Source: Longimicrobiales bacterium (GTDB taxonomy: Bacteria > Gemmatimonadota > Gemmatimonadetes > Longimicrobiales > Gaopeijiaceae). From it: a stretch of 64,000 nt of DNA. This document shows, piece by piece, positions 17,039 through 62,086 of this stretch. Numbering within the stretch: the stretch's first letter is position 1; every line of letters begins with the position of its first letter. Both the position numbers and the translations under genes were made by a program. The stretch lies in the NCBI GenBank assembly GCA_965202985.1, contig CBDBCF010000001.1:608001-672000 (forward strand), in the 5' to 3' direction. The notes below the pieces were generated by a model, which saw nothing but the letters and a program-made list of their open reading frames with translations, did no database searches and was not told where the DNA came from.

Positions 17039-17085
17039 GGCGTCCTCCTTCGCTCGGTCTTCCCTCGGTGCAACGCGTTCCTGAC

Positions 17086-17114
17086 AAGATAATTTAGGCG
17101 TCCCTAAAATGCAA
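17086..17114 (-). promoter_or_regulatory. Sigma70-type promoter with DtxR/MntR-like operator in the spacer
   Basis: TTGCAT(17114-17109)-N17-TATCTT(17091-17086); spacer holds the perfect dyad TTTAGG-N4-CCTAAA (17093-17108). Confidence 0.65.
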
Positions 17115-17263: not shown

Positions 17264-17545
17264 TCAGACGGGGCCGTTCGCGGTCCGCGCCAGCAGCTTG
17301 TCGCCCGTGTCGCAGTCCACCACGGCGTCCGCCGCCTCGTCCACCAACTCCGATCCCGACGCCGCCAAGATGCGACGCAGCCGCTCCGCCGTCCCCGACC
17401 CGAACCGCCGCGCCGCCAGCCGAACCACCAGCGCCCGCTTCTCGGCCAACCCCTGTTCCAGCCCTTGTTCCAGCCCCTGCTCCAGCCCCTGCTCTCGACC
17501 TTCCCGCCGGAGCTCCTCCGCTGCTTCCGCCGCCTGCCAGGACAT
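17264..17545 (-). CDS. Predicted internally initiated small Rpn C-terminal protein (Rpn-S-like, 93 aa)
   Basis: In-frame ATG preceded by AGGGAGGGAGGCGGC; MSWQAAEAAEELRREGREQG... Confidence 0.6.
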   Translation of the reverse strand: MSWQAAEAAEELRREGREQGLEQGLEQGLEQGLAEKRALVVRLAARRFGSGTAERLRRILAASGSELVDEAADAVVDCDTGDKLLARTANGPV

Positions 17546-18298
17546 GCCGCCTCCCTCCCTTGGGTGTCTGATCCGCTCCACGATCCGCTCTCTCGTCGCC
17601 CGCGCCACGCCCATCGCCCGCGCCGCCTCCTCCGCCCACATCGCGTAGCCCTCCCGCACGCCCGCGTGCTCCGGACCGCCGTAGCGCGCAACCAGCGCTT
17701 CCGTCACCCGGCCCAGGTTCCGCCAGTCCCGAACCAGGTCCACCAGCCACCGCAGCAGCGTGCCGTCCGCCGGCAAGTCTTGCTCCGCAGCCGACCTCGA
17801 GTCAAGGACCTCGTACAGGTGCGCCGTCTGCCGCCGGGCGGCGCTCGCAGACCCCGGCGGCGCCAGCGCGGCCACGCTCGTCAGCGCTCGCCACGGCTTG
17901 GGACCGACGTGCAGCACCGACGACAGGACGGTGGGCGCGCCGCTGCCGTCGGGGTTTCTCCACTGCTCGCTGGCTTTGAGGAAGCGGTAGAGGTGGGCGA
18001 CGTACTCGAGGCTTCGGAAGAGCATGTCGTAGCGGACGGCGGACTGGTACTCGACGTGGAAGACGACGGCGCGGCGGCGGTGGCGGAAGGGGACCCACCA
18101 AGCGGCGTCGGCGCGGCGGAGCTTGGGGCCGGGGGAGACGTGCTCGGTGGGCAGTTCGCGGATCGAGTCGAGGTCGAGTTCGCGGTGCCAGCCGCGAGCC
18201 ATGAAGTCGCGGACCAATGACTGGGCGGCGAGGGGGTGGGCGAAGAACGACTTGAGGACCTCGTCGTGCCTGCGGGGGCGCTTGGGACGCTCCGTCAT
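17264..18298 (-). CDS. Rpn/YhgA-like recombination-promoting nuclease (PD-(D/E)XK family), copy 1
   Basis: HD..LK..F.HP, RRAD..W.V, HVEYQS, M..R.L.Y, VLH.G..PW; C-terminal (GLEQ)n and RRFG domain. Confidence 0.88.
   Translation of the reverse strand: MTERPKRPRRHDEVLKSFFAHPLAAQSLVRDFMARGWHRELDLDSIRELPTEHVSPGPKLRRADAAWWVPFRHRRRAVVFHVEYQSAVRYDMLFRSLEYVAHLYRFLKASEQWRNPDGSGAPTVLSSVLHVGPKPWRALTSVAALAPPGSASAARRQTAHLYEVLDSRSAAEQDLPADGTLLRWLVDLVRDWRNLGRVTEALVARYGGPEHAGVREGYAMWAEEAARAMGVARATRERIVERIRHPREGGGMSWQAAEAAEELRREGREQGLEQGLEQGLEQGLAEKRALVVRLAARRFGSGTAERLRRILAASGSELVDEAADAVVDCDTGDKLLARTANGPV
17450..17494. repeat. 12-bp tandem repeat (~3.7 copies) encoding GLEQ
   Basis: CCCCTGTTCCAG CCCTTGTTCCAG CCCCTGCTCCAG CCCCTGCTC. 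Confidence 0.9.
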
Positions 18299-18384
18299 GG
18301 GTTGCGGTCTCCGTTGGCGCGGGGAGTTGGCGGACGTTGGCGGACCGGCCTGCGAGGACCGGGCGAGTCCTGGACACGGAGCAA

Positions 18385-18433
18385 GATGGGACGAAATTGG
18401 GGCGTTTCCATGGCTGGATCGGCCCGTTTTTCG
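18385..18433 (-). promoter_or_regulatory. Conserved upstream element of Rpn copy 1 (shared with 62150-62200)
   Basis: Plus strand GATGGGACGAAATTGGGGCGTTTCCATGGCTGGATCGGCCCGTTTTTCG. Confidence 0.6.
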
Positions 18434-60937: not shown

Positions 60938-61216
60938 CTAGAGCTGGCGGGAGGCGGAAGCGCCGTTGGCCGCCTCGGCCAGCAGGTCGTCCCCCGTCTC
61001 GCATTCCAGCACGGCGTGGCCCACCTCGAGCAGCTGCTCGGGACCCATCGCCCCCATCAGCGCCTCCAGACGCTTCGCCGTCTCCATCCCGAACTTCCGC
61101 GACGCCTGCCCAAGCACCATCTCTCGGCGACCCCGGGCCACGCCCTTCTTCACGCCCTTCGCCATGCCCCTGCGCTCGTGTCCCTCCACCCACTCCTCGT
61201 AGTACGTCTGGCCCAT
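60938..61216 (-). CDS. Predicted internally initiated small Rpn C-terminal protein (Rpn-S-like, 92 aa)
   Basis: In-frame ATG preceded by GAGGAGGCGCTGGAG; MGQTYYEEWVEGHERRG... Confidence 0.6.
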   Translation of the reverse strand: MGQTYYEEWVEGHERRGMAKGVKKGVARGRREMVLGQASRKFGMETAKRLEALMGAMGPEQLLEVGHAVLECETGDDLLAEAANGASASRQL

Positions 61217-62086
61217 CTCCAGCGCCTCCTCGGGTTGAATGATCCCCTGCACGATAACCTCCGTCCGCTCCGCCGGCACGCCCGCCGCTCGCATCCGCTC
61301 GTCCGTCCACCTGGCGAACGACCGCCGGAACGAACGATGCCCCTCCCCGGCCCGATGCCTCGCCAACGAGGCGTGCACGCGCGGAAAGGCGTCCCCCAGC
61401 GGCGCCCGCTCCAACGCGCCCAGCCAGCCCAGCAACGAGTCCGCCGGCAACAAGCCCCGCGCCGACGCCGACTGCAAGTCAAGCACGACGCAGCGGTGCG
61501 CGGTGCCGAAGCCGGCTACGGCGCGCGCCACGGCCGGCGGCGGCTCCGGCGTGCGCGTCAAGGCCGCCAAGCTCGTCTCCGCCGGCCAGCGCTTCGGACC
61601 GGTGTGGAGGACGCAGGAAAGGAGCAGGGGCACGGCGTCCCCCGGGTCCAGCATCTTCGGGTTGGCCCGCAACGCCTCGACCATCCCGATCGCGTAGTCC
61701 AACGTGCGAAGCGCCATGTCGGAATCGTGGGACGCCTGGAACTCGACCAGGAAGACGACCGAGGCCTCGCCGCCCTTGAACCAGACGCGGAGCGCGAAGT
61801 CGGCCAGCCTGCGCTTGAGGCCCTCGGAGATCGTCTCGGTGGAGACGAGCGCGGCGGTGCCGAGGTCGAGGTGCTGGTGCCATTCGACGGCCAGGAAGTC
61901 GCGGATCAGCGATTCGATCGCCGCGCCGTGGGCGAAGAGGGCCTTGTAGGTCTGGTCGTGGCGACGGCGCTCGCGCTCTTGGGGCGCGTCGTCCTGGGAG
62001 TCCGGGGCATCGGCCACGCAGTCGGGCTGCTGCGACGAGTCGGGGTCGTGGTCGGGCAGTTGGTGTTCGTTGCGGTGTCGGTCCAT
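60938..62086 (-). CDS. Rpn/YhgA-like recombination-promoting nuclease, copy 2
   Basis: HDQTYKALFAH, RRLAD, LVEFQA, MALR.L.Y, VLHTG..RW; C-terminal G..KG..KG..RG and RKFG domain. Confidence 0.88.
   Translation of the reverse strand: MDRHRNEHQLPDHDPDSSQQPDCVADAPDSQDDAPQERERRRHDQTYKALFAHGAAIESLIRDFLAVEWHQHLDLGTAALVSTETISEGLKRRLADFALRVWFKGGEASVVFLVEFQASHDSDMALRTLDYAIGMVEALRANPKMLDPGDAVPLLLSCVLHTGPKRWPAETSLAALTRTPEPPPAVARAVAGFGTAHRCVVLDLQSASARGLLPADSLLGWLGALERAPLGDAFPRVHASLARHRAGEGHRSFRRSFARWTDERMRAAGVPAERTEVIVQGIIQPEEALEMGQTYYEEWVEGHERRGMAKGVKKGVARGRREMVLGQASRKFGMETAKRLEALMGAMGPEQLLEVGHAVLECETGDDLLAEAANGASASRQL

Follow-up and report, generated by a model that had tools for sequence, protein, structure and literature searches.

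A C-to-G switch of synonymous codons inside Rpn genes of a Longimicrobiales bacterium and its possible origin

Two Rpn genes and the frames predicted within them

The window, that is, the whole stretch of 64,000 nucleotides analysed here, carries two genes of the Rpn (YhgA-like) family, both on the minus strand. The features recognised in and around them are listed below.

17264..18298, minus strand: Rpn (YhgA-like, PF04754) gene copy 1, 344 aa, candidate long form RpnL (Pfam, 4.5e-9)
18383..18431, minus strand: copy 1, conserved upstream motif, candidate regulated promoter
17927..18298, minus strand: copy 1, C-rich block, codons 1-124, fourfold C/G 59/5
17264..17926, minus strand: copy 1, G-rich block, fourfold C/G 25/105, relaxing over the last 10-15 codons
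17777..17805, minus strand: copy 1, candidate internal sigma70-type promoter, with TTGAC at 17805-17801, a 17-nt spacer and a weak second hexamer
17264..17545, minus strand: copy 1, candidate RpnS antitoxin frame from M252 onward, 93 aa, GGAGG at 17550-17558; layout as in PMC10400941
17447..17494, minus strand: copy 1, four EQGL repeats, the first 17 residues after M252
60938..62086, minus strand: Rpn gene copy 2, 382 aa
62148..62198, minus strand: copy 2, upstream motif
61714-61501, minus strand: copy 2, gradual C-to-G switch, codons ~124 to 195
61477..61482, minus strand: copy 2, internal TTGAC box
60938..61216, minus strand: copy 2, candidate RpnS frame from M291, with GGAGG upstream

Both genes passed the curated cut-off of PF04754 (21 bits) with 36.6 and 57 bits, and both missed that of TIGR01784 (52.1 bits) with 22.2 and 31.8 bits. 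Judged from their sequences, they are members of a divergent subfamily of the Rpn/YhgA-like nucleases that lies below the TIGR01784 cut-off. The family profile matched E. coli RpnA with a probability of 99.4, and D12, D64, E83, Q85 and R95 of copy 1 were aligned with D11, D63, E82, Q84 and R94 of RpnA, which we take to be the catalytic residues. No solved structure was found to match. The Rpn copy and its paralogues were seen as short contigs in two DNA runs of one sample, and none of 38 candidates was confirmed in a metagenome scan.

Rpn/YhgA-like genes have been described as gene-within-gene toxin-antitoxin systems (Zhong et al. 2023, PMC10400941). With the Rpn genes of that article's main text, the window genes share a PD-(D/E)XK-type N-terminal domain, four-residue repeats, a large number of copies, the lack of visible terminal inverted repeats and, as candidates here, an internal promoter and an internal start. 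In copy 1, GGAGG and M252 precede the four-residue repeats by 17 residues, which falls within the 8-20 residues given there for the internal start of E. coli-type RpnS. The codon before GAC at column 160 of the family alignment ends in T in 100 of 141 homologues, although such codons make up 5-7% elsewhere; this T is conserved in five of six groups and gives rise to TTGAC. By group, TTGAY is present in 15/20, 15/21, 21/21, 31/37 and 9/15 genes, and in only one of the 27 genes from other genera of the same family. A sigma70 scan with strict settings gave no hit within copy 1. The conserved TTGAC on the one hand, and GGAGG with M252 on the other, nonetheless support a candidate internal promoter and a candidate internal start for RpnS, and the idea of the initial annotation that translation may begin within the gene has gained ground accordingly. 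Both window genes would thus belong with the Rpn long/short (RpnL/RpnS) toxin-antitoxin systems, as candidate toxin/antitoxin pairs.

The motif upstream of the Rpn genes was found at 38 sites over threshold in the genome. It also precedes ssb and the genes for a ComM/YifB-type chelatase, a double HhH (ComEA-like) protein and a PilB-like ATPase, as well as recQ and a C39 peptidase gene; recA carries it weakly, and several unrelated genes also lie behind it. The motif possibly marks a candidate competence or recombination regulon. Such an arrangement resembles competence regulons such as Sxy/CRP-S, in that one motif is common to ssb, comM, a comEA-like gene, a pilus ATPase gene and Rpn, but the Sxy/CRP-S motif itself differs from the one upstream of Rpn, a candidate regulated promoter. 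In E. coli, transposase-like genes probably belong to the Sxy/CRP-S regulon. Some Rpn copies of this genome (e.g., C1:701448 and C1:795688) are truncated but retain the RpnS tail as well as the upstream motif.

The switch at silent sites in the window, the genome and the homologues

The initial annotation had described a flip from C-ending to G-ending synonymous codons in the middle of both Rpn genes, and a recount reproduced its figures exactly. In the first 107 codons of copy 1, CGC/CGG is 14/0 and GTC/GTG is 9/0, and from LLRW onward the same pairs stand at 2/17 and 1/9. The best change point falls at codon 124 (17926 in the window), with a fourfold C/G of 59/5 before and 25/105 after it (Fisher's test, 1e-23). 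The likelihood ratio of this change point was 103, and the maximum across 1000 synonymous shuffles was 13.2. Copy 2, with CGC/CGG of 8/0 up to DMALR and 4/9 from SASARG, changes gradually with a ratio of 23.2, and is thus less sharp than copy 1, as had been claimed. For neither gene did any of the 1000 shuffles reach the observed ratio.

To compare these values with ordinary genes, we used gene calls from our own hexamer model (2601 genes in the genome), for which reason start codons are approximate. The remaining 43 called genes of the window had change-point ratios of at most 15.9. Among 2548 background genes of the genome, the largest upward (C-to-G) ratio was 38, as against 103 in copy 1, and the average gene showed no such gradient; a general 5'-3' gradient was rejected as the cause on this ground. 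Thirty Rpn hits were called in the genome, 20 of them being at least 900 nt in length. All 20 full-length paralogues switch upward, 11 exceeding every background gene. Neither outcome that would have refuted the initial annotation, a gradient of this size in ordinary genes or Rpn paralogues lacking the switch, was observed. The ten shorter hits, mostly G-rich 3' fragments, were excluded from this count. The flip is a real, strong and conserved feature of these genes.

The same rise from C to G was found in 115 of 121 homologues across four high-GC phyla, one locus set being the best 77 of 316 relatives. We scored a rise when the first quarter of the gene lay below the mean of the last two quarters, and dropped partial ORFs. 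Of the loci taken, the rise was present in 21/21 from the same genus, 26/27 from other genera of the family and class, 21/21 from Gammaproteobacteria, 32/37 from Acidobacteria and 15/15 from Spirochaetia. No clear switch was seen in E. coli rpnA/B/C/E, a Pseudomonas copy or a Skermanella plasmid copy; the Rpn genes of Hydrogenophilus and Thiodictyon switch weakly, and that of Mycetohabitans is G-rich throughout. Clostridium, which is too AT-rich to score, and the Halomonas locus L041 lie outside this scoring. The family is expanded in all three relatives from the same genus, and this query did not find it in 37 more distant genomes. Tandem or closely linked Rpn pairs and triplets occur in other genomes (L103, L057, L058 and L012).

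Could a C-rich 5' segment have been joined only once to a G-rich 3' segment, forming a chimera whose descendants merely inherited the contrast? The switch points do lie at or near conserved protein motifs, where diverged copies could cross over. Nevertheless, the rise was found in 40 of 41 representatives sharing less than 75% nucleotide identity, and recent substitutions in three phyla still favour the C-to-G pattern (see below). Such a relic is therefore highly improbable, and we consider it the least credible of the explanations treated here.

The skew spans all eight fourfold codon boxes, GGG and CGG included, and TTG takes the place of CTG in the G-rich part. As all eight boxes shift together, the skew acts on nucleotides rather than on the choice of tRNA. 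GC content is unchanged, the bias being one of G versus C on one strand. The excess of C begins ~100 nt upstream of the start codon, at the upstream motif, and the G-rich block fades 30-50 nt before the stop codon; the flanking DNA is neutral, and the skew stops at the element ends or the limits of shared sequence. Several general causes were rejected. Ordinary single-copy genes carry no replichore skew, which excludes a replication-strand bias, and the 12 co-directional Rpn copies switch in the same manner as the 8 head-on ones, so that replication orientation does not account for the switch. Gene length fails because long unique genes are neutral, and expression level because ribosomal-protein genes (0.36-0.56) have no preference for G.

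The initial annotation also raised selection on the RNA. Such selection might favour long-range helices between the C-rich 5' half and the G-rich 3' half (a fold-back like that of type I toxin mRNAs), or codon choice might tune RpnL versus RpnS at the level of tRNA. The gradient roughly doubles the predicted cross-half pairs relative to global shuffles. However, when three genes were folded with 12 shuffles each, cross pairs were no more numerous than in synonymous shuffles that keep the gradient, and the native minimum free energy was weaker in all three (-578 vs -588, -618 vs -634 and -475 vs -492 kcal/mol). Tuning by tRNA-optimal codons is contradicted by the joint movement of the codon boxes and by the unbiased ribosomal-protein genes, and the onset of the G-rich zone lies 75-130 codons ahead of the start of RpnS. 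We thus regard selection of either kind as very unlikely.

Repeated sequences elsewhere in the genome and tuf genes in other genomes

Ribosomal-protein genes are not among the G-richest genes of the genome; these comprise tuf, the genes for giant repeat proteins and for IS transposases, and part of a multi-copy ATPase family. The repeated parts of 18 giant genes exceed expectation by +0.18 to +0.35, and nine long unique genes deviate by -0.04 to +0.03. For instance, the repeated modules within g2474 lie at 0.75-0.90 and its unique part at 0.41-0.59. The 18 genes, which are very long or incomplete (e.g., C1:1804480 with 13009 aa, and C2:777910), are made up of modules shared up to ~180 times; 16 are co-directional with replication, their repeated modules being G-rich and their unique parts mostly neutral. 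Ordinary two-copy paralogues showed no excess of G (0.49), a point that speaks against any simple rule.

In the bacterium's own family, the fourfold G/(G+C) of tuf is 0.63-0.91 in 18 scored two-copy genomes, and two complete genomes from one genus that have a single copy score 0.42 and 0.44; lone tuf hits in fragmented assemblies gave 0.72-0.85. Values of 0.80-0.92 were obtained in two-copy Gammaproteobacteria and Acidobacteria, as against 0.47 in two single-copy Spirochaetia. Among 40 further tuf loci, picked phylum-wide for assembly quality and spread, tuf exceeded its flank by more than +0.14 in 17 of 20 two-copy cases, compared with 5 of the 20 loci where the copy appeared to be single (p=1e-4, related genomes not being independent). 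Skew was near zero in three of the 20 two-copy loci, and collapsed assemblies would explain the five G-rich apparent single copies. When pooled, two-copy tuf genes already favour G in the first codons, and their last twelfth is neutral. The lone tuf of the present genome (C1:907948-909138) is 0.89 G, and rpoB, rpoC and fusA motifs were not found; these two observations together suggest that the assembly collapsed between tufB and tufA.

Five IS types run in the opposite sense: they set out at about +0.3 and finish, at the 3' end, between -0.02 and -0.4. Their transposase genes (e.g., C1:22947, 420877, 517153, 279634 and 1633299) are G-rich over the 5' three-quarters and lean to C in the 3' quarter; this polarity, the reverse of that of Rpn, is bounded by the element ends. 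A 215-bp element present in three copies (C1:578281) likewise runs from G to C. In codon classes, the Rpn 5' block resembles the IS 3' ends. The middle of Rpn is characterised by changes from C to G, C to T, CTG to TTG and GAA to GAG, and the signs of all four classes match those between two-copy and one-copy tuf.

Intragenic tandem repeats follow fork direction, with +0.18 in eight co-directional and -0.04 in nine head-on genes (p=0.027), the frame being set by dnaA at C1:1525105 and a terminus near C2:427 kb. Of two tandem triplets of the multi-copy ATPase family (C2:39388-44300 and C2:181262-186000), the co-directional one is G-rich (+0.29) and the head-on one slightly C-rich (-0.04 to -0.10).

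Recombination between repeats and Rho-dependent termination as possible causes

In these high-GC bacteria, a sequence with a homologous partner becomes richer in G and poorer in C on one strand. This is a correlation; the G-rich signature tracks copy number in tuf, the giant repeat genes and the IS elements, and the dependence on a homologous partner was found for tuf and the giant genes. We consider it probable that the G-rich block of Rpn has a repeat-linked origin. The gain of G would occur on whichever strand provides the invading 3' end when repeats undergo gene conversion or fork restart. It might arise if C:C mismatches escape mismatch repair and G:G mismatches abort exchange, or if exposed C is deaminated. 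The 3' two-thirds of Rpn would then obey the repeat bias and, like tuf, relax where homology ends. In the C-rich 5' block, the same bias may act on the other strand, if exchanges start on the promoter side, which is the weakest step of the scheme. Taken as a whole, the view that the flip is a non-adaptive footprint of strand-biased recombination among Rpn paralogues, with the polarity reversed at the 5' end, has in our judgement a little less than an even chance of being right.

Exchange between Rpn paralogues has left traces in this genome, as identity within the pairs g447/g1937 and g569/g1690 is 0.93-1.00 ahead of the tail and drops to 0.76-0.87 from there on. Recent substitutions were polarised by parsimony on 59 non-independent triplets from the other three phyla: in columns 1-60, G-to-C changes (0.031 per site) exceed C-to-G changes (0.010; p=0.014), and in columns 61-160, C-to-G changes (0.046) exceed G-to-C changes (0.024; p=0.006). 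Polarity was not significant in 34 triplets of the bacterium's own phylum. Rpn copy number did not predict skew in 24 genomes of the family (Spearman, p=0.28-0.75), in which the two single-copy Rpn genomes were the only ones without a C-rich start. The 5' block is a partial mirror only, with G-to-A changes at twofold sites being raised in one of three groups.

The strand-asymmetric process envisaged by the initial annotation was tied to recombination at a recurrent break inside the gene. The link to recombination received indirect support from tuf, the giant genes, the IS elements and the mosaic paralogues, but a single recurrent site was not supported by mapping on the alignment: the switch lies anywhere between HMM columns ~60 and 159 depending on the subfamily, and no motif common to the switch points was seen. 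A version of this idea posits breaks or nicks inside the gene, possibly made by RpnL in cis, from which repair synthesis runs outward both ways and leaves an origin-like C|G polarity. The observed polarity indeed matches a replication origin, the sign of the tandem repeats can be predicted from fork direction, and gene orientation is irrelevant to the switch. In subfamily A the switch takes the form of a sharp step. Such a step also occurs in g506 and is unlike a decaying tract, which counts against recombination among paralogues; in other genes the switch is indistinguishable from a gradient. On the other hand, the profile of tuf, G-rich from its start and neutral at its 3' end, fits a bias on invading tails better than one on new synthesis, and under the invading-tail reading an internal break would yield G|C, as in the IS elements. 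Together with the mobile position of the switch, these points render internal breaks unlikely.

The main rival to recombination is selection for Rho-dependent termination. If this is the case, Rho would be loaded on the C-rich 5' UTR and the first part of the coding sequence and would cut the toxic RpnL transcript short, and the C-poor stretch from the internal promoter to the RpnS start, which is C-rich for antisense RNA, would shield the untranslated leader of the antitoxin. Several observations are consistent with this proposal. The genome carries one rho gene over the TIGR00767 cut-off and a second rho-like gene just under it (C1:1122217 and C1:2623422); the 5' region is C-rich from the upstream motif onward and weakly folded, local folding being weaker than in global shuffles. 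The G plateau occupies columns ~160-255, covers the predicted antitoxin leader and declines in the RpnS frame in the three other phyla; in subfamilies B and B2, it starts at the internal promoter, as the proposal predicts. Among the 41 representatives, the contrast lies in C (twofold T/C 0.075 vs 0.213, p=3e-10) and not in A/G (p=0.40). PMC13323073 describes Rho as shaping synonymous codons in Bacilli, and internal transcription starts in E. coli rpn genes are reported in the main text of PMC10400941, where Rho and termination go unmentioned and 'codon' refers only to start and stop codons.

Nevertheless, a Rho-like signature is absent elsewhere in the genome: convergent and tandem 3' ends are alike (0.508 vs 0.511, p=0.60), and the DNA after stop codons is at ~0.50. 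The 5' ends of restriction and methylase genes, which were suggestive at first, proved not significantly C-rich (p=0.30 and 0.08; 18/18 and 22/28 hits could be placed on called genes). The rpn genes of E. coli do not switch, although this species has Rho and the genes have an internal promoter; in several groups, up to 100 codons of the G-rich zone precede the internal promoter; and tuf, the giant genes and the IS elements are left unexplained. Selection for Rho-dependent termination is thus a possible but doubtful account of the whole pattern. Alternatively, both processes may have acted, Rho selection having produced the C-rich block only and the repeat bias the G-rich block.

If we return to recombination as the preferred reading, it is attractive to speculate on a strand-specific form of biased gene conversion in high-GC bacteria, so far undescribed, in which G is favoured over C on the invading strand and long-lived repeats record where recombination started and in which direction it ran. 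Rpn, under a competence-type promoter, would be the sole family here with a reversed 5' polarity, since its spread would start on the promoter side. We put this wider proposal forward tentatively, as it is rather unlikely to hold in full.

The gene family is known, and the C-to-G flip and the rule of G-rich duplicates appear to be new; searches of open-access main texts yielded no account of a codon flip within genes or of duplicated genes enriched in G. Two known non-adaptive biases of synonymous composition, GC-biased gene conversion and replication-linked GC skew, are linked to recombination or to fork direction. The present bias differs from both, as GC content is constant, G is set against C on one strand, and the effect is confined to repeats. 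Conversion between tufA and tufB, for which uniform initiation and no base or strand bias were described (Paulsson et al. 2017, PMC5485169), is alike in being bounded by the ends of homology between repeats; the terms 'polarity' and 'asymmetr' do not occur in the searched text of that article. The purine bias driven by Rho in Bacilli (PMC13323073) is alike in shaping synonymous choice on the sense strand at the nucleotide level, but it is genome-wide and favours A and G, whereas the Rpn bias is local and flips its sign within the gene, with T rising along with G.

If recombination is genuinely the cause, the synonymous G/C skew would serve as a sequence-only readout of conversion polarity, would flag collapsed duplicates in assemblies, would caution against taking tuf codon usage as a translational optimum, and would offer a testable handle on how Rpn genes multiply. 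Initiation on the promoter side, if true, would further hint at how these genes move without transposon ends. If selection through Rho is the cause instead, a toxin-antitoxin switch would be encoded in silent sites.

In keeping with a repeat-linked bias, single-copy genes behind the upstream motif are not C-rich, whereas the multi-copy g1523 is. A family of genes for membrane-anchored, coiled-coil repeat proteins (CCDC90/apolipoprotein-like; C1:2216171, 2124858 and 1346440, and C2:808840) has head-on members that are C-rich and co-directional members that are neutral to G-rich, two of the genes lying behind the Rpn upstream motif. In the window itself, a sigma70-like site on the plus strand (17081-17110) lies over a near-palindrome at ~17094-17110, which resembles a DtxR/Fur-type metal-regulator box; the site would point towards the 3' end of Rpn copy 1.
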